The position numbers and the translations under genes are program-made. 64,000 bases of DNA from an uncultured Rickettsiales bacterium (GTDB lineage Bacteria; Myxococcota_A; UBA796; UBA9615). Each line of letters begins with the position of its first letter. The stretch's first letter is position 1. Of the stretch, positions 43,303 to 64,000 are shown piece after piece. The notes beneath the pieces were generated by a model. It ran no database searches and was not told the DNA's origin. It was given only the letters and a program-made list of their open reading frames with translations. Location: positions 7,120-71,119 of the forward strand of contig CAYQEG010000008.1 of assembly GCA_964416435.1 (NCBI GenBank). The letters run 5' to 3'.

Positions 43303-44571
43303 TCACTCCGCCGGCTGGTGGTACCCATCGGCGACGGCTCGCAGCTCCTCGGCTGGCTTGACCAGCGCGCCGCCGCCGTCGGAGTGGCAGCGCTCGCACG
43401 CGTACTCGAGGGTCAGGAACGGGCTCATGAACTCGTCGCCGTCGTCCTCGTAGAACTGCGCGGCGTCGGGATCGGTGTTGATCGCGAACAGGTGGGTCGC
43501 GACGTCCCCTTCCAGGCCTTCGCTGACCGCGGACTTGCTCGCCGGCGGCATGTGGCACTCCACGCACGAGAAGCCGGCCATGGCGACCGTGTCCATGTTG
43601 GCCGCCTCCACGAAGTGGCAGCTCTCGCAGTCGCTGATGATTCCGCGATCGGGGTTCCAGGTGGGGTCGGTGTAGACCGCGCTGGCGTGGGGGTCGTGGC
43701 AGTCGACGCAGTCCAGGGCCCGGTGCTTGCTGTTGGCCAGCTCGTTCCATTGCTGGGCGTTGTGGCCGAACCCGCCCGACGCCGGGATGCGTGCCTCGGG
43801 GCCGTGTCCGTGACAGGCCCCGCACGCCTCCGAGTCGCGGTCGATCCGCATGGGCACCTCCAGCGGGTTGTCCGGGTGGCCGCCGGCCGCGCCGTGGCAC
43901 TCCTCGCAGGTCACGCCGGGCTCGCTCCAGGTGCCGACCACGCCGGGCAGGTCGTCCTGGTGCCCGTCGATGCTCCAGCCGGTGGAGTGGCAGGGACCGC
44001 AGTCCATCTCGAACGTGCCGGCCGCGCTGCCCTCTTCGTAGTTCACCCACGAGCCGTCCTCGACGTTGAACTGGGTCGCGGTGTACGGCGGTGCGGCGCC
44101 GCTGGTGACGACGTAGCCGTTGTTGTCCATGAAGCGAACGCGCCAGCCCCAGCCGCCGATCAGGTAGCTGATGTCCGACCACGCGTAGCCGTCGGGCGGT
44201 GCGGACGGGTAGTCCCCCTCGAACTCCGGCGGGGGGAGGGGCGCGACGCCGCCGGTCGGCACCATCACGTAGGGGTGACCCGACCGAATCATCTTGTTGT
44301 ACTGCTCTTCGTGGCAGGCGCCGCAGGTGTCCGAGCCGATGAAGCCGGGGATCGTGAAGTCCTCCCCGTCCTGTCCGTCCTGGCCGTCATCGCCGTCCGC
44401 CCCGTCCGCCCCGTCGACGCCGTCCGAGCCGTCGAGCCCGGCGGGTCCCCGGGCCCCGGTCTCACCCACCGGCCCCTGCGGACCCTCGGGACCGGTGCAG
44501 CCCGCGAGCAGCAGCGCGGCGAGCAACGGGACCAGCGTGGTGAGCGGCACAGCGAGGTGGGGTGGGCGCAT
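43303..44571 (-). CDS. octaheme c-type cytochrome lipoprotein with N-terminal collagen-like (GXY)15 repeat
   Basis: Start MRPPHLAV.. with GAGGAG RBS. Lipobox LLAGCTG. GPEGPQGPVGETGARGPAGLDGSDG..DGQDGED repeat. 8 CXXCH. Confidence 0.85.
   Translation of the reverse strand: MRPPHLAVPLTTLVPLLAALLLAGCTGPEGPQGPVGETGARGPAGLDGSDGVDGADGADGDDGQDGQDGEDFTIPGFIGSDTCGACHEEQYNKMIRSGHPYVMVPTGGVAPLPPPEFEGDYPSAPPDGYAWSDISYLIGGWGWRVRFMDNNGYVVTSGAAPPYTATQFNVEDGSWVNYEEGSAAGTFEMDCGPCHSTGWSIDGHQDDLPGVVGTWSEPGVTCEECHGAAGGHPDNPLEVPMRIDRDSEACGACHGHGPEARIPASGGFGHNAQQWNELANSKHRALDCVDCHDPHASAVYTDPTWNPDRGIISDCESCHFVEAANMDTVAMAGFSCVECHMPPASKSAVSEGLEGDVATHLFAINTDPDAAQFYEDDGDEFMSPFLTLEYACERCHSDGGGALVKPAEELRAVADGYHQPAE
44359..44493 (-). 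repeat. collagen-like GXY x15 coding repeat inside cytochrome gene
   Basis: The DNA shows a GCCGTC/GTCCTG periodicity encoding G-X-Y triplets. Confidence 0.7.
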
Positions 44572-44600
44572 CGACAGCTCCTCGGTGGGCGGGCGCCGGC

Positions 44601-45410
44601 TCAAGGAGCCGACGCGTGGCACGTAGCGCCGCAGGTTACCGGCACGTCACCCGCACCGTCGCCGGCCTCGTGGCACAGCAGACAGGGCGCCTCGCCGGTC
44701 GGGTCGACGGCGACCGGGTGTTCGACCCGCCAGTCGGCGGCGTGAGGATAGGCCGGGTGACAGGAGCCGCACGAGGGCGCCCAGGCGCCGCCGCCGGACC
44801 CGTCGCCATGGCAGGTGCCGCAGCCGGCGTCGGCGTACGCCTCGCCGTGCACGTCCCCGGCCGACCAACCGTCGGCGTGGGGGTAGTCGGCGTGGCAGTC
44901 GCCGCAGCCGGGGGTGGTGGCGTCCTCACCCTGCGGCTCGGTCAGGTGGCAGCCCAGGCAGGCGTCGAGCGTGTCGCGGTCGGCGAGGAACGCGGCGTGG
45001 GTGACGCCCACCCTCCAGCCCGCGGGGTGGGGCCAGGAGGCGTGGCAGGAGTCGCACGCGACCCCCGAGTCCCCGCCCGCCAGGTCGTCCCCATGGCAGG
45101 AAGCGCAGGTCGAGCGCACCTCCAGGTCGTGCCACAGGGGTCCGTGGCCATCCAGGAAGTCCGTCGCGTGGGGATAGTCGGTGTGGCAGGCCTGGCAGCC
45201 GGCCGCGCCGGACTCGGAGGTGCTCGACGGGTCGTGGCAGGCGACGCAGACCTCGGCGTCGTCTCCGAGGTAGAGCTGGCCGTGCTGCCCGGCCTCCCCG
45301 AAGCCGTCTTCGTGGGGGAACAGCTCGTTTTCGATGGGGCCGTCGGGCTCCACCGCGGGCACGGAGCAGGCGGTCAGCGACAGCGCCGCGAACAGGGTCA
45401 GGAGACGCAT
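44601..45410 (-). CDS. multiheme c-type cytochrome lipoprotein (about 9-10 hemes)
   Basis: Signal + Cys, LSLTACS. 9 CXXCH plus one CX3CH in 269 aa. Confidence 0.85.
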   Translation of the reverse strand: MRLLTLFAALSLTACSVPAVEPDGPIENELFPHEDGFGEAGQHGQLYLGDDAEVCVACHDPSSTSESGAAGCQACHTDYPHATDFLDGHGPLWHDLEVRSTCASCHGDDLAGGDSGVACDSCHASWPHPAGWRVGVTHAAFLADRDTLDACLGCHLTEPQGEDATTPGCGDCHADYPHADGWSAGDVHGEAYADAGCGTCHGDGSGGGAWAPSCGSCHPAYPHAADWRVEHPVAVDPTGEAPCLLCHEAGDGAGDVPVTCGATCHASAP

Positions 45411-47521
45411 CAGTCAGCCTCCCCGTACAGGTAGTCGAACACCGCGGACAGCGTGACGTAGGTGGTGCGGAGCGTCGGCTCCCCCGCCGGGCCGATGAAG
45501 TGCGAGCCGACCGCCTCGTACTCGATGTCCGCCCAGCGGTGGCAGGTCAGACAGGCGTTCGGCGGCACGTCGTCCAGGGCCAGCTGCGATGCGCCGGCGG
45601 CGTCGAACGCGGCGAGCGAGTCGGCCGGGTCCTGGATCGTGAGCACGTGCGACGGCAGCCGGCCGCCGCCGGTGACCTCGCTGCGCCCGCTCCGGGACGC
45701 GGTGGCGGGCATGTGGCAGCCGGTGCACCGCCCCGACGCGTAGGAGCCGGCGGGGTCGTAGCCGGAGTGCCGCGTGTGTTCGGCGGCCGCCGCCTCGTCC
45801 GCGAAGTGGAGCGAGGTGTGGCAACCCAGGCACAGGGAGTTGTCGTCGGGGTCGGCGTTGAGCTGGTACGGCAGGTCGCCCGACGGCCCATGGTTGAGGT
45901 GGCACTCGGTGCAATGGAGCGCGTACAGCCCGCTGCCGCCGTGGGGGGAGGCGCGCAGGTCGTCCGCCTGCTGGTTGGGGCCGGCCGCCGCCCCGCCGGG
46001 CCAGGTCTCGGGGGCCGAGTCCAGCCACGTCGCCAGCGCTCCCCCGGCGCGCCAGGCGCCGTCGTCCTCGGAGTACGGGAACGCGACGGCGGTCTCGAGA
46101 TCCTCCGACGCGGTCGCGAGGCCTGCGCTGTGGCAGGCGGCGCAGACGTCGAGCGCCCGCTCCGGATCGAGGCGACCGGGGTGCACGATCCGCTCGACGC
46201 CGCCGTCCTCGTCGTCGCCGGCGGCGACATGCTCGGAGCCCGGACCGTGGCAGGCCTCGCAGCCGACGCCCCGCTCCAGCGCGACGCCGTCGCCGCCGAG
46301 CGCGGTCGAGGTCACGACGCCGCCGTGCTCGTCCAGCTCGAAGCCGAGCGCGTGGCAGCCGACGCAGGCGGCCGCCTCGGAGCGCTCGGGGGCAGGGCCG
46401 TGGGTGTCGTCGTGGTCCAGGAAGCCGCCGAACTCGTCGAACCAGGCCTCCGGCTCGAACGGCGCGAGGCCCGGCTCGAAGGCGGGGCTGGCGAGGTCAC
46501 CCGCCCCTTCGGGACGCCAGAGCACCGGCGCCGGCGCCGGCCCACCCGGGTGGTCGAGGATCGGCACCACGCCGGTAGCGCCGTACCAGCCGAGCACGTC
46601 GTAGACCTCGAAGCCGTCCGCGCCGAACAGCCAGGCGCGGGTGCCGTCGCCGGAGGCCGCCAGCCGCGCCGAGACCGAGGACAGGGCCAGCGGCAGGGTC
46701 ACCTCCACCCCGACCAGCAGGTCGGCGGCCAGGGCCGACGGGGGTGTCGCGGACCAGGTGGCTGCGTGCTTCGAGCTCGCCCAGGCCGCGTGCTCGTGCC
46801 CGTGACACTCGAGGCAGGCGTCCGAGCCGGCCCAGGTGGCCGCGTCGCTCGGCGCGCCCGAGAGGGTCAGCTGCAGGAGCGTGGTCGCCCCCTCCTCGAA
46901 GCTGAGCGCGGCCGACCAGGCTGCCCCCGGGGCGTCGTCGCCGGGCACGATCGCGACCTGCAGGTCGCCCGTCGGCAGCTCGCCGAGCTCGACGGTGCCG
47001 TCGTCCCGGGTGATCGCCTCGGCGACCCCGTCGCCGACCGTCACGGTCGCCCCCGCCAGGGGGCGGCCCGCCGCGGTGCTCGCTTCGACGCGGAGCGCAG
47101 GGGTGCCCGTCGCCGCTTCCCGCAGCGCCAGCTCCAGCTCGGAGGACTCCCCCGCCACCACGTCCACCGCCTCGACGATCACGGTCTCGAAGCCGACGGC
47201 GGCCACGGTCAAGCGATAGGCGCCCGCGGGCAGCGCGGCGAAGGCGGCCAGGCCGCCGTCGTCGCTCGTCGCCTCGGCCCCGAGCGGGCCGACGGTGGCG
47301 AACGCGCCGGCCAGCGGCGCCTCCTCGGCGTCGAGCACCTCGACGAGGAGAGCGCCATGGGTCGGGGCGACGTCCGGATCGGGCTCGTCCGGCTCATCCG
47401 CCGTGGGACAGCCGACGAGGATCACGGCGCCGGCGAGGGCCAGCGCGCAGGTCCGCCAGGAGCGGGGGAGAGCGCGACAGGATCGATGGGCCAGGTCCAC
47501 GGGCGCTTCCGTCACCGTCAC
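45410..47521 (-). CDS. multiheme c-type cytochrome with N-terminal Ig/carboxypeptidase-regulatory-like beta domains
   Basis: Lipoprotein-like LALAGAVILVGCP. About 200 aa of beta-rich A/V/G/T region. 8 CXXCH. Stop overlaps the downstream start (TGATG). Confidence 0.8.
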   Translation of the reverse strand: MTVTEAPVDLAHRSCRALPRSWRTCALALAGAVILVGCPTADEPDEPDPDVAPTHGALLVEVLDAEEAPLAGAFATVGPLGAEATSDDGGLAAFAALPAGAYRLTVAAVGFETVIVEAVDVVAGESSELELALREAATGTPALRVEASTAAGRPLAGATVTVGDGVAEAITRDDGTVELGELPTGDLQVAIVPGDDAPGAAWSAALSFEEGATTLLQLTLSGAPSDAATWAGSDACLECHGHEHAAWASSKHAATWSATPPSALAADLLVGVEVTLPLALSSVSARLAASGDGTRAWLFGADGFEVYDVLGWYGATGVVPILDHPGGPAPAPVLWRPEGAGDLASPAFEPGLAPFEPEAWFDEFGGFLDHDDTHGPAPERSEAAACVGCHALGFELDEHGGVVTSTALGGDGVALERGVGCEACHGPGSEHVAAGDDEDGGVERIVHPGRLDPERALDVCAACHSAGLATASEDLETAVAFPYSEDDGAWRAGGALATWLDSAPETWPGGAAAGPNQQADDLRASPHGGSGLYALHCTECHLNHGPSGDLPYQLNADPDDNSLCLGCHTSLHFADEAAAAEHTRHSGYDPAGSYASGRCTGCHMPATASRSGRSEVTGGGRLPSHVLTIQDPADSLAAFDAAGASQLALDDVPPNACLTCHRWADIEYEAVGSHFIGPAGEPTLRTTYVTLSAVFDYLYGEAD

Positions 47522-48516
47522 TTCCTCCTTCGCCGCTTCTCCGTGTCATCCGGAGTGTGACACGTTCCGCACAGCGCGTTTCCGCGGAGGGGTTTGCGCA
47601 TGTAGTCCGGCTCGAAGGTCCACGGCATGGGATCGGTATCCAGGGTCGCCGCTCTGCCTTGCAAGATCGGCTCCATCACCGACCACAACCAGGGGTCATC
47701 GAAGAGCGGCGTACCAGCCCACTCGGCCCGGTCCATCGCGGTCCGCTTGCTACCCGGCGGGTGGGGGTCGTGGCAGGTCCCGCAGAACACCTGGCCTTCG
47801 GGCGTCAGCGGCAACCCGCCGGCGTCGGCCCGGGCTCGCATGTCGTCGTCGAGGATCTGCAGGTGCTCGGCGCTCCCGGTGTGCCGGGTGTCCTCGTGGC
47901 AGCCGTAGCAGATCTGTACCCGGTCGACCTTGAGACGCTCCAGGTCGGGCTCGCCGTCCACGAGGTCGTGACAGAACTCGCAGATCGCGGTCGTGTCCCG
48001 CTTCTCTTCCATCGCGAGGTGTGGGTTGAAGCGCACCTCTTCAGCCGCCCCGTGACAGTTTTCGCACAGGTCGCCGAGGCTGGCGTAGGGACCGCCGCGG
48101 AAGAACCGGGGGTTCGCGGGATCCTGGCCGCCACCCGAGCACGCGGGCTCGTCGTGGCAGGTCAGGCAGGCCAGCTGACCGTCCGGCAGCGGGAACCCCG
48201 GGGGCACCCGGGCGAGGTCGCGCGGCACATCGGGCGCGGTCGCCCCCCGCCGATGCGCGTCGATGTCGACCTCGTGAGGGGCGCTGTCGTGGCACGAGCG
48301 GCAGGTGTCGTTGGCGGTGCCGGCGGCCCACGGGATGACCTCGGAGGTCGCGCCCGGCGAGGCCTCGGCGTGACAGGAGACGCATCGGTCCACCGCGAAG
48401 TGCGGATTGAGGCGGACCTCCCCCTGCTCGGGGGTGTCCGTCACGCCGGGCGACTGGGCCAGGGCGACGCCCGCGCACAGCATCGCGGCGAGGGCTCCGA
48501 GCGCGCGGCCGGTCAC
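47518..48516 (-). CDS. octaheme c-type cytochrome (paralog family A)
   Basis: GTG start overlapping the upstream stop (GTGA). Signal VTGRALGALAAMLCAGVALAQS. 8 CXXCH. Paralogous to 51495..52487 and 56724..57680 (shared ..TCH.EPAC..GGPY..C..CH block). The ORF-track extension to 49014 was rejected. Confidence 0.8.
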   Translation of the reverse strand: MTGRALGALAAMLCAGVALAQSPGVTDTPEQGEVRLNPHFAVDRCVSCHAEASPGATSEVIPWAAGTANDTCRSCHDSAPHEVDIDAHRRGATAPDVPRDLARVPPGFPLPDGQLACLTCHDEPACSGGGQDPANPRFFRGGPYASLGDLCENCHGAAEEVRFNPHLAMEEKRDTTAICEFCHDLVDGEPDLERLKVDRVQICYGCHEDTRHTGSAEHLQILDDDMRARADAGGLPLTPEGQVFCGTCHDPHPPGSKRTAMDRAEWAGTPLFDDPWLWSVMEPILQGRAATLDTDPMPWTFEPDYMRKPLRGNALCGTCHTPDDTEKRRRRK

Positions 48517-48821
48517 GGCGCCACCCCGTTGTCGCCGTGGCAGCGGGCGCATGTCTCGTACTCGCCATCCTCCGCCTCTTCGCGGATCGCCTCCAGGTCG
48601 AGGTCCGGCTCCAACGTGCAGTTGACCTGGTGGGTCGACTCCAGCGAGTGGCATTGCGTGCAGGCGTCGTTCCCCCAGCCCGCCTCGTGCTCCGACCGGG
48701 TCAGCTCCGCGCCACCGGGCCCGGCCAGCACGTCGTCGACCCCCGCGCAGGGATCGATGGCACAGCCGGGCATCGCCAGGACGACGATCACGCCGCAGAC
48801 GGCGATCGCGCGGCCTACCAT
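48513..48821 (-). CDS. small diheme c-type cytochrome lipoprotein (paralog family B)
   Basis: GGGAGG RBS. MVGRAIAVCGVIVVLAMPGC signal. CTQCH and CARCH. Paralog of 51193..51498. Confidence 0.7.
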   Translation of the reverse strand: MVGRAIAVCGVIVVLAMPGCAIDPCAGVDDVLAGPGGAELTRSEHEAGWGNDACTQCHSLESTHQVNCTLEPDLDLEAIREEAEDGEYETCARCHGDNGVAP

Positions 48822-49444
48822 CCTTGCCTCCCAGCCGGATCCGTGTGGCATTGGCGACAGGTGTCGCCCTGGTGGCAGTCCTCGCAGGAGACCGGGTCGG
48901 TGCGCGCGGCCATGCCGTGCAGGCTGAGCCAGTTCCCGTCATGCACGCCCGAGCCGAGGTCGTCCCGCCGGCTGTGACACCCGGCACACATCCAGCCGGT
49001 GTGGCATCCCGCACAGTGCTCCGGCTGGAGCACCGCCTCCCGCGCGTGGTCTCGCTTCCAGGCGAAGTGGTGACTGTCCGGGGGCGGCAGGTTCTCCGTC
49101 TCGTGGCAGGTTCGACACGGGCTCGGAGCCCCCAGCGGGTTGTCCTGCTGGTGGCACGTGTGACAGATCTCCTGCGTCGGGAGCAGCACGGAGTTCGCCG
49201 GATCGGTGAACGTCGGCCGGATCTCCCCTCCCGGAACCTCCGGCTCCTTCGTCGCGCCGATCGTGTGGCAGGGCAAGCAGATCCACCCCACTTCGTCCAT
49301 CACCGGCATGTGCACCCGGTGATCGAAGCGGTCGAAGATCTCGGGCAGTCGGTACTCGGGCTGCTCCGTCGTCAGCCGGCGCTGGGCCGAAGCGCAGGAG
49401 AGGAGGACCAGGGCGCCCACGAGCGTCCAACGGAGGCGGCTCAT
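48815..49444 (-). CDS. heptaheme c3-like cytochrome (paralog family C)
   Basis: Strong RBS GGAGGAAGGGAG before ATG MSRLRWTLVGALVLLSCASA. 7 CXXCH. C-terminal block ..GNWLSLHGMAARTDPVSCEDCH.. shared with 56014..56652. Confidence 0.8.
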   Translation of the reverse strand: MSRLRWTLVGALVLLSCASAQRRLTTEQPEYRLPEIFDRFDHRVHMPVMDEVGWICLPCHTIGATKEPEVPGGEIRPTFTDPANSVLLPTQEICHTCHQQDNPLGAPSPCRTCHETENLPPPDSHHFAWKRDHAREAVLQPEHCAGCHTGWMCAGCHSRRDDLGSGVHDGNWLSLHGMAARTDPVSCEDCHQGDTCRQCHTDPAGRQGW

Positions 49445-49939
49445 GCTCCCTTCCTCCACGCGACGACGTGCACCACCAGCCGGGCGTTGACCCGGAGGTC
49501 GTGTTGCAGCAGCGCGCTGCTGCGGTACTCGGCGCCGACCGCGATCTCGATCTGCCTCGCGGGCCGGATCGCCGCCTCGCCGAGCAGCCAGCCGGCGAGA
49601 CGCCAGGGTCTGCTGAGCTTGCGGTAGGGCACCACCTGGCCGACCAGGCGCAATCCGATGACGCGGTGGGGCACCCAGCCGAGCCGGCCGCCCACGGCGT
49701 GGAAGGTCCCGCCGTACGACGACGATCATGAAATCCCCCGGAATCCCTCATCGAGTGTGACCGTGATCATGTTGCGGGCCAGAATCGGGCGGGCCGCGCC
49801 CGAAGCTGACCTGGGTCATCGGCATCGCCGGGTCAGTCGTCACCGGTTCGGGCATGATCTCCGGCAGACGATGCTCCCATTTGGGACGATCGTCGTCGGG
49901 ACACCCCGCCGGCTCTTCGAGGGCCGGCACGGAGACCGA
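49445..49939. promoter_or_regulatory. divergent promoter region between two cytochrome operons
   Basis: About 495 bp between divergent starts at 49444 (-) and 49940 (+). Confidence 0.3.
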
Positions 49940-51196
49940 GTGAAGGTGCGCCAGGTTCTCCTCGCCGTCGCGGTCGGCCTGGTCGCGGCGATCGCGCAGC
50001 CGTCGCCGGCGTACGCCGATACGTTCCTCTATGGCCGCTCCACGACCAGCATCCAGCTCCGCGAGGACCTGGACGGGGTGGTCCGGGCGCCCCTGTACGA
50101 GACCTTCCACGGCGGCCTGAGCTACGACCTGGGCGCCGATCTGCAGCTCTCCAGCCTGGCCCTCGTCAAGCTGGGGACGGTGCTCGGGCACCCCGGCGGC
50201 ACGGTCGACCTGTACCTGCTCAACGTCGGCCTGCACCGCTACCGCGGGCGGCTTCGCCTGGTCGGCGGACGGCAGCTGCTGCGCACCGCCCGCGGGGTCC
50301 GGATCGTCGACGGCGTCTCCTTCCGGCTGCACCCGGCGGCGGCGATCTGGATCGACGCCGCGGCCGGCTGGCTGCGCGACATGGAGCTCGACGACTTCTC
50401 GGGCGGCTCGATGCTCTTGCAGGGCGGCGCCGGCCTGTCGCTGCTCCGCGGCACGCTGCTCGGCGCGCACGTCGGCTTCCGCGCCGGGCCGACGACCACG
50501 CCCCGGCTCGACGCCCGGCTGTCGGCCGAGGCGGTGCTCCCCGCCCCCTGGGCCCCCAAGCCGTGGATCGACGCGTCCTTCCGGCTGGACGCCGGCGGGC
50601 TGCGCAACGTCCGCGGCGGCGTCGTGCTCACGCCGATCCACCTCGTCGAGCTCGAGGTCCGCGGCCGGGTCGACCAGGTCGTCGACCACGACGGCACGCT
50701 GGCCCGCCGGATCCTCGCCGACCTGACCGACTCGCCGGTCGCCAGCCTGCAGGGGATCGCCACGCTCAAGGTGCGGGGCGGGTTCAGCGCGACCGCCAGC
50801 TACCAGGCGTCGCACTACCGGGTCGGGGCCGACCTGCCGAACCACGGCCACGGCGCGGACGTCGATGTCCGGCTGCACCGCAGCGGCTTCGGCGTCAGCG
50901 GCGGGTACGTGTTCCGCAGCTCCTACGGGGGGCTCTATCACTCCCTGGGCCTGGACGCGTACCTCCAACCGCACCGCGCGGTTCGGCTGGAGGCAGTCGC
51001 GCGCGCGATCCCGTTCCGCAAGGTGATCGGCCCCTGGGGGCTCGCTCAGTGGTACATGGCGCAGGTGTCGGTACATCCCAACGAGCACCTGCAGATCGTC
51101 GTCGGGGGGGAGTACCGCGCCGGAGCCACGCTCCAGCACGACCTCCGCCTCAACGCGTCGGTGACCCTCGTGGGCCGCCTGAGGAAGCGCGGATGA
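49940..51196 (+). CDS. secreted beta-rich protein, candidate outer-membrane porin-like component (paralog family D)
   Basis: GTG start with GGAG RBS. Signal VKVRQVLLAVAVGLVAAIAQPSPAYA. Alternating hydrophobic/Gly/Arg pattern. Paralog of the partial gene at 63174. Confidence 0.6.
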   Translation: MKVRQVLLAVAVGLVAAIAQPSPAYADTFLYGRSTTSIQLREDLDGVVRAPLYETFHGGLSYDLGADLQLSSLALVKLGTVLGHPGGTVDLYLLNVGLHRYRGRLRLVGGRQLLRTARGVRIVDGVSFRLHPAAAIWIDAAAGWLRDMELDDFSGGSMLLQGGAGLSLLRGTLLGAHVGFRAGPTTTPRLDARLSAEAVLPAPWAPKPWIDASFRLDAGGLRNVRGGVVLTPIHLVELEVRGRVDQVVDHDGTLARRILADLTDSPVASLQGIATLKVRGGFSATASYQASHYRVGADLPNHGHGADVDVRLHRSGFGVSGGYVFRSSYGGLYHSLGLDAYLQPHRAVRLEAVARAIPFRKVIGPWGLAQWYMAQVSVHPNEHLQIVVGGEYRAGATLQHDLRLNASVTLVGRLRKRG

Positions 51197-55128: not shown

Positions 55129-55129
55129 C

Positions 55130-56017: not shown

Positions 56018-56652
56018 GACTCCGCCTCCCCCGGGCGCTCCCGGCGCTGCTCCTCGTGCTCGCCGTCGCTGGTGGCTGCGCCGCCCTGCAGCGCCAGCCG
56101 GCCACGGTGGACGACGACACCCGCCTGAACCGGATCTTCTCGCGGTTCGAGCACGCCCGGCACGACGCCGCCCTGGAGGTCGCCGGCTGGCAATGCAGCG
56201 ACTGTCACTACGTCGGCGCGGTGATCGAGGGGGAGCCGGACGAGACGCTGGAGGTCGAGCTCGACCGGGTGCTCCTCCGGCCTCCCGCCAGGACCTGCCA
56301 CTCCTGTCACGAGCGCTCGGAGGCGACCCAGCTCGCCACCGCGACCCGGTGCCGCCTCTGCCACGAGGAGGGCGACCTGCCGCTCCCCGAGACCCACACC
56401 GCCAGCTGGGTCATCCAGCATCAGCGCGACGCCATGCTCGAGCCGGAGAGCTGCTACGACTGCCACGAAGGGCACCGCTGCGTCCAGTGCCACGTCTACC
56501 GGGACCAGGTCTCCCACGACACCCACGACGGCGCCTGGCTCAGCGTGCACGGCATCGCCGCGCGCACCGACCCGGTCTCCTGCGACCGCTGCCACGAGGG
56601 CCAGTCCTGCCAGGACTGCCACTCCAGCTCGCTGGGGCGCGACGGCTGGTAG
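56014..56652 (+). CDS. heptaheme c3-like cytochrome lipoprotein (paralog family C)
   Basis: Putative TTG start overlapping the upstream TGA. Lipobox LLLVLAVAGGCAA. 7 CXXCH. C-terminal block shared with 48815..49444. Confidence 0.7.
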   Translation: MRLRLPRALPALLLVLAVAGGCAALQRQPATVDDDTRLNRIFSRFEHARHDAALEVAGWQCSDCHYVGAVIEGEPDETLEVELDRVLLRPPARTCHSCHERSEATQLATATRCRLCHEEGDLPLPETHTASWVIQHQRDAMLEPESCYDCHEGHRCVQCHVYRDQVSHDTHDGAWLSVHGIAARTDPVSCDRCHEGQSCQDCHSSSLGRDGW

Positions 56653-56723: not shown

Positions 56724-57680
56724 GTGCGGCCTTTTCCCTCCGCCAGACCTTCCCCGGCGCTCGCCAGAGCTGCGGTTCTCGCGACGGGAATCCTCCTCGT
56801 CGCTGTCAATCGCCCCGTAGACGCGTCCGCCGACGGAGCAGGTGCTGCAGCCGAGCAGCAGCGTGAGAACCCCCACGACCGTCCGGACGGATGTGCGCTG
56901 TGCCACATGCCCTCCGAGTACGCCGACGAGCCGGTCGGAGCCCCGCTTCCGACGGCCGAGAGCTGCGGCGACTGCCACGAAGAGGCGGACATGCACCCCA
57001 CCCATGTTCCGGTGGTGATCGCGACGGTGCCGGACGACTTCCCGCTCGAAGACGGCCTGATCACCTGCTCGACCTGCCACGCAGAACCGGCCTGCAACGG
57101 CAACCGGAGCCGGGTCGCCCCCTGGCGACGCGGTGGACCGTACCCCCACGCCATGTCGTTCTGCTGGCGCTGCCACCCGGCCGAGGAGTACGGCCGCAAC
57201 GATCCCCACCACCCCGCAGAGCGGCGGGCCGACGACGACCCCACGTGCGCCTACTGCCATACGACGCTGCCGGAGTCCGGCGCGCCGATCGCCGAAGCGC
57301 GCCTGCGCACCGACTCGGTCAAGGTCTGCGACACCTGCCACCTCGGTGACGTGCACTACGGCACCGCCACTCACGCCGGGGTGGCGATCGAGGAGGCCGA
57401 CCGCGCCTCCCTCGACCCGAAGATCGAGCTGGACGAGGGCAGCGTCGTGCGGTGCTGGAGCTGCCACGAGGTCCACGGCGACGGCGAAAGACCGCGACCG
57501 GCGGCGACCGACGACGACCGCCCCTCGACCACCGCCCTCCTGCCCGGCCCCGACGCCCTGTGGGTCGACGAGGCGCCCCCGGCCCGGATCCGCCCGACCG
57601 ATCCCGCCCACCCCTCGCTGCTCGTGCTGCCCGCCGATGACGGACAGCTCTGCCGCGCCTGCCACGGAGTCGGCCCGTGA
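56724..57680 (+). CDS. octaheme c-type cytochrome (paralog family A)
   Basis: 8 CXXCH. Shares the ..CSTCHAEPACNGN..GGPYPHAMSFCWRCH block with the other family-A paralogs. Confidence 0.8.
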   Translation: MRPFPSARPSPALARAAVLATGILLVAVNRPVDASADGAGAAAEQQRENPHDRPDGCALCHMPSEYADEPVGAPLPTAESCGDCHEEADMHPTHVPVVIATVPDDFPLEDGLITCSTCHAEPACNGNRSRVAPWRRGGPYPHAMSFCWRCHPAEEYGRNDPHHPAERRADDDPTCAYCHTTLPESGAPIAEARLRTDSVKVCDTCHLGDVHYGTATHAGVAIEEADRASLDPKIELDEGSVVRCWSCHEVHGDGERPRPAATDDDRPSTTALLPGPDALWVDEAPPARIRPTDPAHPSLLVLPADDGQLCRACHGVGP

Positions 57681-60600
57681 GAGAACTCCACCCGCCCCCC
57701 CGCCTCCTCCCCGGGGCGCTGCTGCTGACGCTGGTGTTGTCGCTGCTCGCGGCGACGGCGCTCGGCCAGGAGGCCGTGGCGGATCCCGCTCCGGAGCCCG
57801 ACGCGCCCCTCCCCGAGGCCCTCGCTCCGGCGGACGCCGAAGACTGCCTCGCCTGTCACCGCTTCCGCGGCCTCGCCCGGCTCGACCATGAGACCGGCGA
57901 GCTGCGCCTGTTCTTCTGCAGCGACCGTCACTACGCCCGCCAGGAGGGGCCTCACTCCCGCCTCGCCTGCACCGACTGCCACGAGCGCGAGCCCCTGAGC
58001 GCCGTGCCCCACGAGGATCCGGAGCCGGTCGACTGCTCTCGGAGCTGCCACCTGGCCGGGCCCGGGGGGCTGGAGCTGGAGTTCAGCCACGAGGCGATCG
58101 CCGAGAAGATCGAGCGCAGCGTGCACGCCAGCGAGGCGCTGGCCGACCTGGTGGCCGACGACTCCCCGCTGCGTGAGGGACAGTCCGCCTGCCTCTTCTG
58201 CCACGACGAGCCGGTGTTCCGGGAGGCTGGCGCGGCGGATCCCGCGCACCGCGGCGAGATCATCACGGCGCGCTGCGACAGCTGCCACACCGAAGAGCTG
58301 CCGGTCGACGTCGAGTACTTCCTACGCCACACGGCGGGCCGGCTGCAGAGCGCCCGACCCATCGAGCGGACCGCGGAGGTCTGCGCCGCGTGCCACAGCG
58401 ACCACGCCCTGTCCGACAAGATGGAGCTGCACGACGCCGTCACGAGCTACTTCCACAGCTTCCACGGCAAGGCGAGCCTGCTCGGCAACGCTCTCACCGC
58501 CACCTGCGTCGACTGCCACCGGACCGAGGAGGGCGATGTCCACCTGATGCTCTCGGCCGAGGACCCGGAGTCCCGGACCCACGAGGCCAACCTCGAGACC
58601 ACCTGCCGCACCGCGAACTGCCATCCCAACGCGGTGCCCCAGCTGTCCGCCGCCGGCGTACACCTGTCGATCGATCCGGACGCGCGCACGCCCGAGTTCT
58701 ACGTCATGGCCGCCTTCGTGGTGCTCACGGTCGGCGTGATGACGATCTACTTCCTGCTCGTGCTGCTCGAGCTGCTCAACGCGGCGCTCCGCCCCCACAG
58801 CGAAGAGCACAAGCGCAGGGTCGCCGTCGCCGAAGCCCTGATGCGCACCAAGGAGGGGGGCAGGCGGCTGCTGCGGCTGACGGTCCACCAGCGCTGGCAG
58901 CACTGGGCCCTCGTCCTCAACTTCTTCGTCCTGGTGCTCAGCGGGATGCCGCTGAAGTTCGCGACGAAGCCCGGCATGGCGGCGATCGCCACCCTCTTCG
59001 GCGGCATCGACGGAGCCCGCCTCGCTCACCGCGTGGCGGGTGTGCTCCTGATCCTCGCGTTCCTGTACCACGTGGGCTACGTCGCCTGGCACGCGAAGCG
59101 GGACTGGGCGCGGCGCCGCGAGGAGCAGCCGGAGCGGCCCGCCCGCAAGCGGCTGTTCGACCTCGTCATGGAGTCACCGATGATGGTGACGCCCCGGGAC
59201 CTGGTGCACTTCGGGCAGCTGTTCCTGTACCTGGTAGGGCTGCGCCGGGACCGCCCGATGCACGGCCGCTACCACTTCAGCCAGAAGTTCGAGTACTGGG
59301 CGGTCTTCTGGGGCATGGCGATCATCGGCACGAGCGGGGCGATGCTGTGGGCCTCGGGCTGGGTGACGCAGGTGACCGGCGGACGCTCGCTCAACTTCGC
59401 GTTCATCGTGCACTCCGACGAGGCGTTCCTGGCGCTGATCTACATCTCCGTCGTGCACTTCTTCGCGGTGATCTTCTCGCCGTCGGTGTTCCCCCTCAAC
59501 CTGGGCTCGCTGACCGGCGTGATGCCGCCGGAGGAGCTCGCCGAGCAGCACACCGGTCACCTGCTCACGGTCGCCGAGGAGCTCGGCCTCGACGTCGAGC
59601 GCGCAGCTCCCCACAACGGCACCAGCCTCGGGCTCAACCTCATGCGGCGGGGCTACGCCCTGCTGCTCGCGCTCTTCGTCGCGACGCTGGGGTTCTTCTC
59701 GCTGCGCATGCTGGTCGAGGAGCTGGTCGCCGGACACTCGGTCGTCGAGGTCGAGGAGATCCCGCTGCGGCTCGACGAACGCTCCCTCGCCGCCGCGGAG
59801 GGGGATCACGAGCAGCGCTCCCTGCGGACCGAGCAGTACGCGCGGGGACCGATGTCGCACTACCACGTCATCCCGACCTGGTTCCGACCCGACCCGGGCA
59901 ACGGCTGCTCGTCGTCGGGCTGCCACCAGGCGCTGCCCCACGGCGAACGCAAGGAGGACCGCGCGTTCCTGAACATGCACAGCACGTTCGTGGACTGCCT
60001 GGTCTGCCACCTGGACGAGCCGATGGGGATCGACGACCTGTCCTGGGTCGCGCTGGAGGACCGGGCCGGACGCCCGGCGCCGGCCGTGCTGCGGCTCGCC
60101 GAGGTGCTGCGTCGGCCCTTCCCCGAGGATTCCACCCGCCAGCCCGACGCCGCCGCCGAGCTGCTCGCCCTGACGACGGAGGCCGTCGCCGACACCCTGG
60201 GTGACGACGAGCTGGAACGTTGGCGGCTCGAGCTGGAGACGGCGCGGATCGGCGGTCCTCGCTACCTGCACGTCTACGGAGAGATGCAGCGCTGGATCGG
60301 GCTGCACGGCCACGGCGAGTACGGCGCGAAGGTCGGCCTTCCGGGCCGCGTCTGGACCCCGGACGCCGAGCAGGCCGCCGCCGCGGACGCCCTCGCCGAC
60401 GGCATCGACGACGAGGCGGAGCGCCAGCTTCAGGTCGACATCGTGCACCGCGGGGTGGTCCGACCCGAGGTCCGGTGCACCCGCTGCCACACCGAGAACC
60501 CCACGGTCGTCGACTTCGAGACGCTCGGCTACGCCCAGGAGCGGGCCCACGAGCTGCAGACCCAGGCGGTGGCCCGCCAGTCCGAGGCGATCGAGCAGGG

Positions 60601-60709
60601 CGAGGTCTTCTACCTGCCGTCGGTGCTCGACGGCACCCCGGGCCGGTACGACTCGCCGCTCTGGCAGCACCCCGAGGACGAACTCCCCCCGGAGGACTCC
60701 ACTCCGTGA
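57677..60709 (+). CDS. CbcL-like fusion: periplasmic multiheme c domain + diheme cytochrome b (HydC/FdnI-like, 4-5 TM) membrane domain + C-terminal c-heme domain
   Basis: GTGA overlap. Signal. About 8 CXXCH/CX3-4CH N-terminally. Central TM block with conserved His (..LTVHQRWQHWALVLNFFVLVLSGMPLKF.., ..RLAHRVAGVLLILAFLYHVGY..) typical of Ni/Fe-hydrogenase or formate dehydrogenase b-type subunits. C-terminal CLVCH, CTRCH. Confidence 0.75.
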   Translation: MRELHPPPRLLPGALLLTLVLSLLAATALGQEAVADPAPEPDAPLPEALAPADAEDCLACHRFRGLARLDHETGELRLFFCSDRHYARQEGPHSRLACTDCHEREPLSAVPHEDPEPVDCSRSCHLAGPGGLELEFSHEAIAEKIERSVHASEALADLVADDSPLREGQSACLFCHDEPVFREAGAADPAHRGEIITARCDSCHTEELPVDVEYFLRHTAGRLQSARPIERTAEVCAACHSDHALSDKMELHDAVTSYFHSFHGKASLLGNALTATCVDCHRTEEGDVHLMLSAEDPESRTHEANLETTCRTANCHPNAVPQLSAAGVHLSIDPDARTPEFYVMAAFVVLTVGVMTIYFLLVLLELLNAALRPHSEEHKRRVAVAEALMRTKEGGRRLLRLTVHQRWQHWALVLNFFVLVLSGMPLKFATKPGMAAIATLFGGIDGARLAHRVAGVLLILAFLYHVGYVAWHAKRDWARRREEQPERPARKRLFDLVMESPMMVTPRDLVHFGQLFLYLVGLRRDRPMHGRYHFSQKFEYWAVFWGMAIIGTSGAMLWASGWVTQVTGGRSLNFAFIVHSDEAFLALIYISVVHFFAVIFSPSVFPLNLGSLTGVMPPEELAEQHTGHLLTVAEELGLDVERAAPHNGTSLGLNLMRRGYALLLALFVATLGFFSLRMLVEELVAGHSVVEVEEIPLRLDERSLAAAEGDHEQRSLRTEQYARGPMSHYHVIPTWFRPDPGNGCSSSGCHQALPHGERKEDRAFLNMHSTFVDCLVCHLDEPMGIDDLSWVALEDRAGRPAPAVLRLAEVLRRPFPEDSTRQPDAAAELLALTTEAVADTLGDDELERWRLELETARIGGPRYLHVYGEMQRWIGLHGHGEYGAKVGLPGRVWTPDAEQAAAADALADGIDDEAERQLQVDIVHRGVVRPEVRCTRCHTENPTVVDFETLGYAQERAHELQTQAVARQSEAIEQGEVFYLPSVLDGTPGRYDSPLWQHPEDELPPEDSTP

Positions 60710-63174
60710 GACGGCTCGGCTGGATCGCGGCGCTCGGCCTGGCGGCGATGATGCTGCCGGCGTCGGGCGTGCGTGGCGACGCCGGGCAGATGCTCGTGGC
60801 GCACGACGTGCGCACGTTCGAGGTGACCGACGGGGCGCCGCTGGTGCTGCCGACGTCGGTGGCGGTCACCGACTCGGGCACGGTCTGGGTCGCCGACGGC
60901 GTCAACGACCGGGTCGTCGGGTTCACCCCCGACGGGGCCGTCGCGGAGGTCGTCGACAGCATCGATGGCCGCCCCCTCTCCTCCCCCGGGGCCGTGGAGA
61001 CCCGCGGCGAGGACCTGTGGGTCGCGGACACCGGGGGACGCCGGATCGCCGTGCGCGGGGCCGACGGCGCCGAGCGCTCGATCGAAGTCGCCCCACCGTG
61101 GGGCGAGACGCTCGACGTGACGGACCTGGCGGTCTCGTCGGACGGGCGATGGCTGTGGCTGGTCGACAACGACCACCACCGGGTCATCCGGGGGGATCTC
61201 GACGACGGCACGTGGGCCGCGCTCGGCCGCCTCGGGGCGGGTACGGGGCGCCTGCGCTACCCGTTCACCCTCGCGCTCGCAGACGACGGCGACGTCTACG
61301 TCGGGGACGCGCTCAACGGCCGGCTGAGCGTCTTTACGGCCGCCGGCCGGGCCGGCCGCCCGATCGGCGGCTACGGCGTCTCGGCGGGCCAGCTGTACCG
61401 GCCCAAGGGGATCGCGGCCCAGGACGGGCTGCTCTGGGTGGCCGACGGCACCCTGGGCGTGATCCAGGCGTTCGACCGCGCCGGACCGCTCGTGGACGTG
61501 CTGCGGGAGCCCGACGGGGAGCTGCTGCGCCTCGCCAACCCGGCCGGACTGGACGTGGTCGGCGACCGCATCTTCGTGGTCGAGATGGACGAGGGGCGCG
61601 TCCGCGAGCTCCGGTTCGAGGCCGCCCCCGGGCTGCCCAGGACGCAATCGCGCCCGGGACGCGCCGCGCGGGGCCGGGAGTGCACGGTCTGCCACCTGGA
61701 GCTCGTCCCGGAGCTCGAGCGCGGTGATGAGCGGGCGTTGATCCCGCCGCCGCCGAACCACGAGCAGCAGCCGTGGGTCAGCCGGCCCGAGAACTGCCAG
61801 TCCTGCCACGACGGCACGATCATGGACTCCAGGAAGCGGGTCTGGGCGATGCCCGGTCACCCGAGGGACCAGGAGCCCGAAGAGCCGATGGTCGTGCCCG
61901 ACCAGCTCCCGCTGACGGACGGCATGGTGACCTGCCGGACCTGCCACTCGGCCCACACCCTGGCCGGCTCGGGCAAGGCCCACCGCGACGCCCTCCTGCT
62001 GCGCGTCGACGACCGCCCGTCGGAGCTCTGCGTCGCGTGCCACGGCGAGCCCTTCGAGGACCAGCCCCCGGGCACGAGCCACCCGACCGGAGAGCTCGAG
62101 ACCGCCGACGGAGGGCTGAGCCGCGTCGAGTGCCTGGACTGCCACGGCGCCCACGGCACCACCGACGAGGAGCGGCTGGTCGAGGACGAGCGGGGGGACG
62201 CCTGCCTGGATTGCCACGAGGAGATGCGGACCCGGGCCCCCGGGGAGCACTCTCGAGGCAAGAAGGTCCAGGAGCCCGCCGCGGACCGCACCCTGGCGAA
62301 GCGCGGGCTGCTCCTCCCCGAGGGTCGGGTCGCCTGCCTCAGCTGCCACAAGGCCCACGGCGAAGTGGACGCCGCGGCGCTCTGCGTCACCTGCCACGGC
62401 GGTCACCAGGCCGGCTCCGGGCGCGTCCACAGCTCCGCCAGCTGCCTGGACTGCCACGCGGTGCACGTCGTTCGGCGGGACCGCGTCGTGCAGCGCAAGC
62501 CGTCGCCCGGGGACCCCACCGGCTGCCTCGCCTGCCACGGCCCCGGCACCAAGGCCGAGCCCGACCTCGCCCGCCCCGGGACCGAGGGGCACCCGCTGCT
62601 GGACCAGCCCGGCGGACGGGAGCAGACCGATCCGCCGCTGACCGGCTGCCCCTCCTGCCACGACCCCCATGGCCACTCCGCCGGCGACGCGTCGCTGTGC
62701 GAGCGGTGCCACGACGAGCGGGAGGCCGAGATGGACCGGGGCGGCCACGGCGACGCCACCTGCATCGAGTGCCACCCGGCCCACAACGAGCCGGTCCTCG
62801 CCCACATCGGCGATGAGGTCAACCTGGCCTCCCGGCGGTGCCTCGCCTGTCACGCCGAGGGCTCGGAGGTGGAGCACGACACGCCCCAGGTGGACGCCTA
62901 CCAGCACCCGTCGATGGTGTTCCTGCCCGACGGCACGTCGTGGACGCCCGAGGGCGCGCTGCCGCTGTATGGCTCCGACGGCCGGGAGCTGCCCGCCGGG
63001 CGCAACGGCGACCTGGTGTGCAGCAGCTGCCACCTGACCCACGGCCCGTCGGCCCAGCGGGAAGCGACGGCCCGTCGCCGCGCCGGCTGGGAGGGCGAGT
63101 GCACGCCGTGCCACGGCCCGACGGCGCTGTCCCTCTACCTGTACTTCCACAAGCCCGATCGGCGGGAGGAGTGA
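60706..63174 (+). CDS. NHL-repeat beta-propeller fused to about 16-heme c-type cytochrome (paralog family E)
   Basis: GTGA overlap. Signal VRRLGWIAALGLAAMMLPASG. NHL-like repeats (TVWVADGVNDRVVGF, LWVADTGGRRIAV, VYVGDALNGRLSVF, LWVADGTLGVIQAF). 16 CXXCH. Confidence 0.8.
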   Translation: MRRLGWIAALGLAAMMLPASGVRGDAGQMLVAHDVRTFEVTDGAPLVLPTSVAVTDSGTVWVADGVNDRVVGFTPDGAVAEVVDSIDGRPLSSPGAVETRGEDLWVADTGGRRIAVRGADGAERSIEVAPPWGETLDVTDLAVSSDGRWLWLVDNDHHRVIRGDLDDGTWAALGRLGAGTGRLRYPFTLALADDGDVYVGDALNGRLSVFTAAGRAGRPIGGYGVSAGQLYRPKGIAAQDGLLWVADGTLGVIQAFDRAGPLVDVLREPDGELLRLANPAGLDVVGDRIFVVEMDEGRVRELRFEAAPGLPRTQSRPGRAARGRECTVCHLELVPELERGDERALIPPPPNHEQQPWVSRPENCQSCHDGTIMDSRKRVWAMPGHPRDQEPEEPMVVPDQLPLTDGMVTCRTCHSAHTLAGSGKAHRDALLLRVDDRPSELCVACHGEPFEDQPPGTSHPTGELETADGGLSRVECLDCHGAHGTTDEERLVEDERGDACLDCHEEMRTRAPGEHSRGKKVQEPAADRTLAKRGLLLPEGRVACLSCHKAHGEVDAAALCVTCHGGHQAGSGRVHSSASCLDCHAVHVVRRDRVVQRKPSPGDPTGCLACHGPGTKAEPDLARPGTEGHPLLDQPGGREQTDPPLTGCPSCHDPHGHSAGDASLCERCHDEREAEMDRGGHGDATCIECHPAHNEPVLAHIGDEVNLASRRCLACHAEGSEVEHDTPQVDAYQHPSMVFLPDGTSWTPEGALPLYGSDGRELPAGRNGDLVCSSCHLTHGPSAQREATARRRAGWEGECTPCHGPTALSLYLYFHKPDRREE

Positions 63175-64000
63175 TGCGGCTGCACCTCGTCGCCGTCGTG
63201 ATCCTCGTCGCGGGGCTGCTCGCTCCGACGCCCGCCGTGGCCGACCCGGTCGTCGAGCTCGGCTCGGTGACGAGCATCCAGCTCCGCCAGGACCTGGACC
63301 GCGTGCTTCGCCTGCCGCTGTACGAGGATGTCAGCGCGCGGGTCACGGCCGATCTGCCGGGGACCTGGAGGCTGAGGGCGTCCGCGCTGCTGCGCCTGGA
63401 CACCGTGATCCGCGCTCCCGGAGGCGACGTCGACCTGTACCTGGGGTCGATCCAGCTGCGCCGCGCCCGTCGCGCCGTCCGCTTCGAGATCGGTCGCCAC
63501 CTGCTGCGCACCCCGGCCGGCCTCCGGATGGCCGACGGCGTGAGCGTGACCGCGAGGCCCGCCCGGGCGGTGCGGGTGCAGGGCGCCGCGGCGTGGCTGC
63601 GCGACTGGGAGTTCGACGACTTCGGGTACGGCGGCGAGGTGCTCGTGCAGGGCGGCGTGACGGTCGAGCCGATCCGGGGCCTCTTCGCGTCCGGGCTGCT
63701 CGCGATGCGGGTCGGGCCACAGACGTCCCTCCGCATGGATGCGCAGTTCACCGCCGACGCGGTCCTCCCCGCCCGCTGGGCGCCGCACCCCTGGATCGAC
63801 GGCTCCTTCCGTGTCGACTCGGGCGCGCTGCGCCGCCTGCGCGGCGGCCTGGAGCTGACGCCGAGCGCGCGCACCCGCCTGGAGGTGTTCGGCAGCGTGG
63901 TGAACGTGGCCGATCCCGACGGCACGATGGCCCAGCGCATCCTCCAGCAGATGACCTCGGCGCCGACCGGGTCGGGCGGCCTGCGCGGCTCGATGCGCTT
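63174..64000 (+). CDS. porin-like secreted beta-rich protein, 3'-partial (paralog family D)
   Basis: TGATG overlap. Signal MRLHLVAVVILVAGLLAPTPAVA. Collinear similarity to 49940..51196 (TSIQLRQDLD..PLYE.., GGDVDLYL, AAWLRDWEFDDF). Frame open to window end. Confidence 0.55.
   Translation, partial: MRLHLVAVVILVAGLLAPTPAVADPVVELGSVTSIQLRQDLDRVLRLPLYEDVSARVTADLPGTWRLRASALLRLDTVIRAPGGDVDLYLGSIQLRRARRAVRFEIGRHLLRTPAGLRMADGVSVTARPARAVRVQGAAAWLRDWEFDDFGYGGEVLVQGGVTVEPIRGLFASGLLAMRVGPQTSLRMDAQFTADAVLPARWAPHPWIDGSFRVDSGALRRLRGGLELTPSARTRLEVFGSVVNVADPDGTMAQRILQQMTSAPTGSGGLRGSMR

Follow-up and report, generated by a model that had tools for sequence, protein, structure and literature searches.

The window analysed here is a stretch of 64,000 nucleotides from an uncultured Rickettsiales bacterium (assembly GCA_964416435.1, contig CAYQEG010000008.1, positions 7,120 to 71,119), which carries a cluster of multiheme cytochrome genes from position 43303 to its end. 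We consider that this cluster probably constitutes a previously undescribed, non-Mtr porin–cytochrome system, which would connect the quinone pool with the cell exterior and which is laid out as anciently diverged paralogous sets. Five gene families recur in it, comprising 8-heme cytochromes (A), diheme lipoproteins (B), 7-heme cytochromes (C), a predicted outer-membrane β-barrel (D) and NHL-propeller multiheme proteins (E). This reading is carried by the recurrence of barrel-plus-cytochrome sets, by the linkage of D to C and B in distant lineages, and by two candidate inner-membrane quinol oxidases encoded among them.

Heme-protein genes and their paralogy

The GC content of the window is about 72%, which makes raw lists of open reading frames (ORFs) unreliable, and genes were therefore called by third-position GC (GC3), start codons and signal sequences. 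These models place 14 c-type cytochrome genes between 43303 and 63174, twelve of them with 6–16 hemes and two encoding dihemes. Together they hold 112 CXXCH motifs and, in addition, two motifs each of the CX3CH and CX4CH kind, in keeping with the more than 100 CXXCH reported by a first-pass annotation of the same DNA. Across all six frames of positions 1–43302, the other 43.3 kb or so of the window, a single CXXCH occurs in total, and the enrichment of the cytochrome block is far beyond chance. The block also contains two barrel genes (g7 and g16), neither of which encodes any cysteine as far as the window end, which cuts g16, as well as one barrel remnant and a conserved membrane peptide of 37 amino acids (aa). 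GC3 is at least 0.9 in the genes of the block, most genes either abut or share a few bases where one stops and the next starts, and every heme protein carries a signal peptide or a lipobox. Lipoboxes were found in families B and C, in g10 and in the three lipoprotein cytochromes X1–X3 (g1–g3), and family A has a signal peptide without a lipobox. Scans for promoters and terminators, Rfam families and tRNAs found nothing.

Further contigs show that the cluster extends 1.4 kb beyond the window end, to about 65.4 kb in window-equivalent coordinates. There g16 is completed and followed by a 7-heme C gene, a diheme B gene and then a Crp-family regulator on the opposite strand. The entire cluster thus spans about 22 kb, in which 16 heme-protein genes encode roughly 125 heme sites, and the same locus is present at 99.6–100% identity in five further public metagenome contigs from different samples. 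The first-pass count of at least 15 multiheme cytochrome genes is accordingly too high for the window, which has 14 heme-protein genes, and holds for the whole cluster only when the two genes off the window are included. Its strand-run boundaries (43303, 49444, 49940, 55018 and 55130) all coincide with gene ends or starts, whereas its division of the plus strand into two runs has to be abandoned, since the apparent 111-bp gap between them encodes the 37-aa peptide.

Comparison by BLASTP confirmed that all five proposed families consist of paralogs. Family A (g4, g9 and g13; 8 hemes) shows identities of 32–42% (E 1e-24 to 1e-67), family B (g5 and g8; diheme lipoproteins) 46–54% (E 1e-27), family C (g6 and g12; 7 hemes) 42% (E 1e-54), family D (g7 and g16) 49% (E 1e-76), and family E (g10 and g15) 33% over 857 aa (E 1e-98). 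Five genes stand outside these families as singletons of the window (g1, g2, g3, g11 and g14). Alignments that include relatives from other contigs display many invariant residues beyond the heme motifs, such as, in family B, the Cys of the lipobox and the motifs HxAGWG and CHGxNG, and the similarity is thus not noise driven by CXXCH.

Paralogs within the window are 32–54% identical to each other, far below the 65–86% that they share with orthologs in other lineages, which makes the duplications ancient and older than the lineage splits. A recent tandem duplication was rejected on the same identities and on a DNA identity of only 66–68% between the window paralogs. The first-pass idea of modular duplication stands in part: barrel-plus-cytochrome sets do recur, as would suit its proposal of parallel trans-envelope conduits, but gene order differs among the modules (C-B-A-X3-X2-X1, D-B-A-E and D-C-B), which are not copies of one unit.

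The barrel family D and its conserved neighbours

The AlphaFold model of g7 (pLDDT 82, based on a shallow family D alignment) is a barrel of 22 strands that takes up the whole mature chain, with strands starting at residue 29. Its closest structural matches are the 22-strand barrels of TonB-dependent receptors, with which about 350 residues superpose at a sequence identity of 5–11%; D possesses neither a plug domain nor a TonB box, and it matches neither TonB_dep_Rec nor Plug of Pfam. A search of 1.84 billion representative sequences with the D profile returned 79 matches, and the 20 that were checked are unnamed or are Bdellovibrionota proteins labelled 'hypothetical protein', none of them from Geobacter. 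The D barrel family is very rare, unnamed and absent from Pfam and NCBIfam.

In all loci with readable flanks, D adjoins C, nearly always B and usually A. (Labels beginning with L, and P0153, denote the contigs and loci used for comparison.) C directly follows D in 13 places, listed as the window remnant, g16, L004 (two), L007, L014, the P0153 locus, L016, L017 and five new metagenome loci, and B-A directly follows D in the g7 set and in the L002 set. In L007, a metagenome-assembled genome (MAG) from GTDB, genes for NrfC-like and NrfD-like proteins and a 13-heme anchored cytochrome precede D-C-B-A-X3-X2-X1, of which the part from C to X1 matches the minus-strand run of the window gene for gene at 61–78% identity. 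The order is X3-X2-D-C-B-A-E in L014, X3-X2-C-B-A in L015, with D divergent from the C-B-A operon, and X3-X2like-D-C-B in one further distant locus. Two Bdellovibrionota loci with a GC content of 46–49%, at the limit of detection by the D profile (E about 1e-7), have the order decaheme-D-C(-B), with genes for ResB/CcsA cytochrome c maturation coming next; the C proteins of these loci score 123–127 bits on the C profile, the B of L016 scores 39 bits, and the upstream cytochrome is weakly A-like. The linkage of D to C and B persists where D proteins are only 25–29% identical. A search of metagenome contigs with C added six new loci, in which D directly precedes C in all five with upstream sequence, B follows C in all five with downstream sequence, and A comes next in three.

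The invariant core is thus D with C and nearly always B, to which A is a usual and X3/X2 a frequent addition, rather than D+A+E. A was also considered as the cytochrome inserted into the barrel, by analogy with MtrA and OmaB. This candidate was dropped and C is preferred for the lumen, because far relatives retain C and have 9–10-heme proteins instead of A.

One of the sets is degenerate. The minus-strand set C-B-A-X3-X2-X1 has lost its barrel, of which a remnant is left that is 65% identical to residues 310–414 of the L007 D protein (tblastn); the SSYGGxFH motif of the remnant lies just after the in-frame stop, and the native 4-nt overlap with g6 has been kept. The NrfCD-type genes that precede D in L007 were not found in the window, and the adjoining breakpoint region showed no homology to D or to those genes and no consensus promoter. 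In addition, a 29-bp insertion splits g13 (56724–57680; L008 2122–2924) in the assembly of one sample. Public calls of g13 start at an internal ATG (257 aa) and so drop the signal peptide and heme 1, and our longer model aligns with g9 from the N-terminus. The related contig L002 has neither the g13 paralog nor a second E.

Candidate inner-membrane, periplasmic and surface proteins and their genomic context

Two genes that the earlier annotation had not recognised as such, g11 and g14, are candidates for inner-membrane quinol oxidases, judging from their domains. The g14 protein has a signal peptide, an eight-heme domain, about six helices and a C-terminal domain with three heme sites. It matches Pfam Ni_hydr_CYTB (PF01292) at 40 bits (cutoff 30.1), with FdnI matches below threshold. 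The membrane part of its AlphaFold model (pLDDT 80–93) has a single significant match in the PDB, namely FdnI of Escherichia coli formate dehydrogenase-N (1kqf_C; Foldseek TM-score 0.75 on the target, probability 1.00). Five histidines in transmembrane (TM) helices (H409, H451, H465, H579 and H594) and all eight N-terminal heme motifs are invariant among 27 family members. The family has more than 239 members, many from Planctomycetota and Myxococcota MAGs, which are labelled only 'cytochrome b/b6 domain-containing'. In these phyla the g14 type also occurs split into a bc-cytochrome of about 600 aa and a separate anchored diheme protein of 346–393 aa, and fused (about 950–1010 aa) and split forms stand side by side in L012 (12979–16042) and L013 (4642–7474). 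Since the 346–393-aa proteins match the C-terminal domain of g14, we regard g14 as a fusion. The same proteins had been considered as distant D barrels and were rejected, as they have no match to the D hidden Markov model.

The N-terminal half of g11 matches Pfam Cytochrom_NNT (PF03264) at 24.5 bits, just above the cutoff of 24.1. Its score on the NrfH model TIGR03153 is 28.8 bits against a cutoff of 134, and it has 6 hemes rather than 4. A low-complexity linker rich in His, Gly and Glu, with GGxHGEEP-like repeats, parts two triheme halves at residues ~195–250 and could be metal-binding or a flexible tether. The 37-aa peptide encoded just upstream ends in FLWxAxHHGG[F/L] and has an analogous 44-aa ORF at the same position in L014. 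Its probable role is that of a small subunit in the membrane cytochrome g11.

The NHL propeller proposed for family E is borne out in g15 by Pfam NHL (PF01436; 52 bits, cutoff 20, E 4.7e-14). The g10 protein, for which only 13 homologs were found, is homologous to g15 over its full length and itself falls below the Pfam threshold. E genes stand next to membrane modules in two arrangements, E-37aa-g11 and g14-E; over 902 aa, g15 shares 33% identity with a protein that is encoded beside a homolog of g14 in Planctomycetota, and the E heme domain is similar to the anchored cytochrome encoded with the NrfCD-type genes of L007. Because E pairs with inner-membrane modules in other phyla, where the fetched flanks of ±10 kb contain no family-D gene, it is more likely a long periplasmic wire that docks on inner-membrane complexes than a surface cytochrome. 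An OmcB-like surface role was rejected on account of the same conserved pairing.

The lipoproteins g1–g3 are extremely acidic, with 68 acidic against 16 basic residues in g1 and 41 against 5 in g2, and the D barrel is net basic with many invariant arginines; these compositions suggest either charge complementarity or adaptation to a saline habitat. Multiheme lipoproteins with 15–36 collagen triplets directly after the lipidated Cys, as in g1, are also encoded in L007 (9177–10454), L002 (4139–6859), L015 (9210–11615) and a Myxococcota contig (L013 7715–9916), and no mention of 'collagen-like' paired with 'multiheme cytochrome' was found in the literature searched. If it behaves like the collagen-like surface proteins of other bacteria, the stalk of g1 would be trimeric and would keep its heme domain about 10–15 nm from the membrane. 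By their domains, the collagen-like and Ig-like lipoproteins look like surface proteins. The features of the block are listed in Table 1.

Table 1. Genes and other features of the cytochrome block (window coordinates)
Feature	Position	Strand	Description	Matches and relatives
g1 (X1)	43303..44571	-	Lipoprotein, 8 CXXCH; lipobox LAGC; 16 collagen-like G-X-Y triplets directly after lipidated Cys	Pfam Collagen 36 bits (cutoff 27.2); L007 ortholog 67% identical
g2 (X2)	44601..45410	-	Very acidic lipoprotein, 9 CXXCH + 1 CX3CH	Orthologs adjoin X3 in L007, L014, L015
g3 (X3)	45410..47521	-	Lipoprotein, two CarboxypepD_reg (Ig-like) domains, 8 hemes	Pfam PF13620 65 bits; conserved in L007, L014, L015 and P0153 locus
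g4	47518..48516	-	Family A, putatively periplasmic, 8 hemes; signal peptide, no lipobox	L007 A 73% identical
g5	48513..48821	-	Family B, diheme lipoprotein, about 100 aa	
g6	48815..49444	-	Family C, 7-heme c7/c3-like cytochrome with lipobox	L007 C 78% identical
D remnant	49444..49773	-	Family D barrel, last ~105 codons only, in-frame stop inside	
Breakpoint	49774..49939		Rearrangement breakpoint and divergent intergenic region upstream of g7	
g7	49940..51196	+	Family D, predicted 22-strand plugless outer-membrane β-barrel	
g8	51193..51498	+	Family B, diheme lipoprotein	
g9	51495..52487	+	Family A, 8-heme putatively periplasmic cytochrome	L002 ortholog 79% identical
g10	52484..55018	+	Family E lipoprotein; N-terminal region homologous to g15 NHL propeller, then 15 hemes	
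37-aa peptide	55015..55128	+	Single-pass membrane peptide MKTFRIALFAFLVGFLLVAIGLSQTMFLWNAWHHGGF	In public annotations; conserved in L002, L004
g11 (N)	55130..56017	+	One TM helix (26–44), 6 hemes, NapC/NirT-like N-terminal half, His/Gly/Glu-rich linker	
g12	56014..56652	+	Family C, 7-heme lipoprotein	L002 ortholog 86% identical
g13	56724..57680	+	Family A, 8 hemes; 318-aa model keeps signal peptide and heme 1	
g14 (L)	57677..60709	+	1010 aa; 8-heme periplasmic domain, FdnI-fold diheme cytochrome b membrane domain with additional helices, C-terminal triheme domain	
g15	60706..63174	+	Family E, NHL propeller + 16 hemes; signal peptide, no lipobox	
g16	63174..64000	+	Family D barrel, cut by window end; full length 416 aa; C and B genes then off-window	

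Directly upstream of the block (27389–42276) lie genes for 2-oxoacid:ferredoxin oxidoreductase (OFOR), two very large Fe-S proteins and rnfC-D-G-E-A, a context that would fit an anaerobic metabolism based on ferredoxin, which may either supply the cytochrome chain or draw on it. The two giant ORFs (1212 and 1113 aa; 30233–38076, plus strand) lie between OFOR beta and rnfC, carry ferredoxin-type and PFOR_II domains and have an exceptionally high GC content of 0.76–0.79. Genes of a contractile injection system (CIS), all on the minus strand, flank the respiratory block on both sides. Those on the left (17504–26479) encode gp25, Baseplate_J (1207 aa) and P2_I, and those on the right (L008 10694–18418, window-equivalent ~65450–73170) encode VgrG/GPD, a LysM-tube protein, gp19 tube proteins and sheath proteins. 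It looks as though a single CIS locus had either been split or received the roughly 40 kb with OFOR, Rnf and cytochrome genes as an insert. Beside the baseplate genes, also on the minus strand, are a 1646-aa protein with a JAB/MPN deubiquitinase domain, an E2-like (UQ_con) protein and a ThiF/E1-like protein (2916–7856, 17504–18109 and 19209–20564), which from their domains look like a bacterial ubiquitin-like conjugation set tied to the tail-like machine. In addition, the left context holds an HmuY-like heme-binding protein, an IstB/IS21-like ATPase and a hemerythrin-domain protein (14113–15650, minus strand; 26890–27312, plus strand), and positions 1–2229, at 81% GC, show long open frames on both strands without any Pfam match.

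Proposed electron route, alternatives and known systems

From these folds, domain contents, targeting signals and gene linkages, we infer the partners, outer-membrane topology, direction and substrates of the following route. Menaquinol would be oxidised by g14 and by g11 with its 37-aa peptide, and the electrons would then pass via E, A and C in the periplasm. C, seated in the lumen of D and possibly capped at one mouth by B, would carry them through the outer membrane, where X1–X3 could stand off from the surface and reduce acceptors that are insoluble or of high molecular weight, for instance Fe/Mn oxides, humics or partner cells. OFOR and Rnf, by the adjacency of their genes, may feed reducing power into the chain.

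Outward, respiratory flow is favoured because the role for which CbcL- and NapC-type proteins are best known is quinol oxidation in metal reducers, although sequence does not fix direction. The same hardware could also run inward, taking electrons from extracellular donors (Fe(II) minerals, cathodes or syntrophic partners) to the quinone pool, with reverse Rnf supplying ferredoxin for OFOR-dependent CO2 fixation. Rnf and 2-oxoacid:ferredoxin oxidoreductases are reversible and are used in reductive carbon fixation, and their genes adjoin the cluster. Moreover, porin–cytochrome systems of the same build run inward in Fe(II) oxidisers and electrotrophs (PMC5566968; 10.1101/2022.05.06.490989). We nevertheless judge inward flow unlikely, given the best-known role of the CbcL- and NapC-type proteins and a window that contains no Cyc2, cbb3 oxidase, RuBisCO or reverse-TCA marker. 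More improbable still is a network in the periplasm that serves respiration or detoxification, with sulfur, selenium, nitrogen or metal oxyanions as examples of its substrates, and in which the NHL-multihemes would be enzymes and D a substrate channel or a pore for the export or assembly of lipoprotein cytochromes. A plugless 22-strand barrel could indeed let solutes through, and a link to the reduction of oxyanions has been made for the Ext clusters of Geobacter (PMC6148476). The likeness of the E heme domain to a cytochrome encoded with NrfCD-type genes would agree, as would the pairing of E with the g14 type in Planctomycetota and Myxococcota, where the fetched ±10-kb flanks contain no family-D gene. 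Yet D always stands beside C, and nearly always B, in the loci examined, it has none of the periplasmic or plug domains typical of transporters and lipoprotein exporters, and an open pore of 22 strands would be harmful; the surface-protein character of the collagen-like and Ig-like lipoproteins also speaks against such a network. An artefact, whether from CXXCH-rich frames in high-GC DNA, an assembly chimera or a decaying, silent gene graveyard, is scarcely credible. High GC does generate many spurious ORFs, one barrel gene is truncated and g13 carries its sample-specific 29-bp indel, but the CXXCH contrast with the other 43 kb, the GC3 values, the stop/start overlaps and the targeting signal on every heme protein all argue otherwise, as do orthologs 57–86% identical with conserved synteny in other lineages and the recovery of the same sequence in the five further contigs.

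Several observations weigh against the porin–cytochrome reading. The L-E pair, formed by the g14 type and E, occurs in Planctomycetota and, split, in Myxococcota with no family-D gene within the fetched flanks of ±10 kb, and part of the cluster may therefore serve periplasmic chemistry. The heme domains of g14 are of low confidence in its model, being poorly modelled without cofactors. C has no lipobox in the more distant loci, and which cytochrome enters the D barrel is a guess. Finally, the barrel-less module, the missing NrfCD-type genes and the disrupted g13 may mean that some parts are decaying.

A bolder form of the porin–cytochrome reading, which we hold to be doubtful but worth entertaining, is that D-C-B represents a structurally new class of conduit, with a plugless barrel of TonB-receptor size, a 7-heme C in its lumen, a diheme B cap and no MtrA-like decaheme. 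It would be accompanied by trimeric collagen-stalked cytochromes about 10–15 nm off the surface, and would belong to an unrecognised electroactive lineage thinly spread from a high-GC uncultured group to Bdellovibrionota. Through porin–cytochrome conduits, bacteria can use minerals for respiration, corrode metals, supply electrodes and trade electrons with partner cells, and only a few unrelated types, at which standard searches are directed, are known. The cluster would define another type, with its own barrel and cytochrome families, and surveys built on Mtr, Pcc or Cyc2 models would miss the D-C-B system, whose core with or without A is compact and testable at three or four small genes. In addition, g14 would be a second architecture for CbcL-like quinol oxidases, and the collagen-stalked multihemes, of which this is the first hint in the literature searched, could reach past a capsule or S-layer. 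If confirmed, electroactivity would extend to lineages that are not counted as electroactive, including the relatives found within Bdellovibrionota.

Among known systems, MtrCAB, MtoAB and PioAB differ from the cluster in their barrels, which have 26 strands (26–28 in the MtrB/PioB family) against 22 in D, so that D falls outside that barrel family. The A proteins score 23–29 bits on the MtrA/DmsE model TIGR03508 (cutoff 192) and have 8 hemes rather than ten, scores on the OmcA/MtrC model TIGR03507 are 15–36 bits (cutoff 209), and the A profile matches the MtrA chain in the PDB at 27 bits over about 85 residues only. Sequence searches of the PDB with g9 and g14 found nothing, and the A, C and B profiles gave only weak heme-motif matches there. 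In a magnetotactic representative of Bdellovibrionota (the FG-1 paper), an MtrAB-like operon was described and not the D-C-B system. TonB-dependent receptors (FhuA and relatives) share the 22-strand barrel with D, which lacks their plug and TonB box.

PCC3, PCC4 and Uet are, like the present cluster, bioinformatically defined sets of barrel and multiheme genes with an inner-membrane redox protein, and NHL-repeat proteins accompany Uet; their defining parts are missing here. PCC3 of iron oxidisers (PMC5566968) comprises periplasmic proteins with 21–27 hemes, extracellular proteins with 10–63 hemes and a 5-TM protein of about 300 aa with WX3HX13H motifs, whereas the cluster has no such 5-TM protein and its membrane proteins are NapC-like (g11) and FdnI-like (g14). 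Uet of Tenderiales (10.1101/2022.05.06.490989) is marked by a barrel of 28 strands together with PPIase, cupredoxin, triheme c7 and undecaheme proteins, none of which was found in the cluster, and only the NHL repeat is shared.

The Geobacter systems are closer in plan. ExtABCD is made up of the same parts as D+A+C+B, a barrel with one cytochrome in the periplasm and a pair of lipoprotein cytochromes (PMC6148476); compared by description, its hemes number 12/5/12 against 8/7/2 here, and ExtB has 18 predicted strands against 22 in D. The Geobacter Pcc (OmbB-OmaB-OmcB) likewise combines a small barrel, an adjacent 8-heme periplasmic cytochrome and lipoprotein multihemes in one operon, and the window order D-(B)-A-E mirrors ombB-omaB-omcB. 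Pcc systems also occur in tandem paralogous clusters (PMC4245776; PMC4589669), and their barrels of 18–22 strands and periplasmic cytochromes of 5–14 hemes (PMC4245776) bracket the 22 strands of the g7 model and the 8 hemes of A, which has a signal peptide and lies one or two genes from D. The Pcc family was defined by BLAST E<0.01 to OmaB, OmbB and OmcB (Shi et al., 2014). Indirect evidence speaks against membership, in that no Geobacter protein is among the D-profile matches checked (20 of 79). The cluster also differs from Pcc in its additional constant partners, namely C with 7 hemes and the diheme lipoprotein B, and in having no OrfR/OrfS-type regulator inside it.

At the inner membrane, g11 resembles the NapC/NirT proteins of the ImcH/CymA type in its single TM anchor and its putatively NapC/NirT-like heme domain, and is distinguished by its 6 hemes, His-rich linker and 37-aa partner peptide. 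CbcL (GSU0274) joins a membrane part of six helices and two b hemes to a periplasmic domain with nine hemes (PMC9129911). The g14 protein, compared with it by plan rather than by sequence, shares a multiheme periplasmic c domain, about six TM helices, two b-heme sites and a diheme b domain of the FdnI/HydC type. It differs in having 8 N-terminal hemes and an extra C-terminal TM helix with a triheme domain, and its nearest relatives are the unnamed proteins of Planctomycetota and Myxococcota MAGs.

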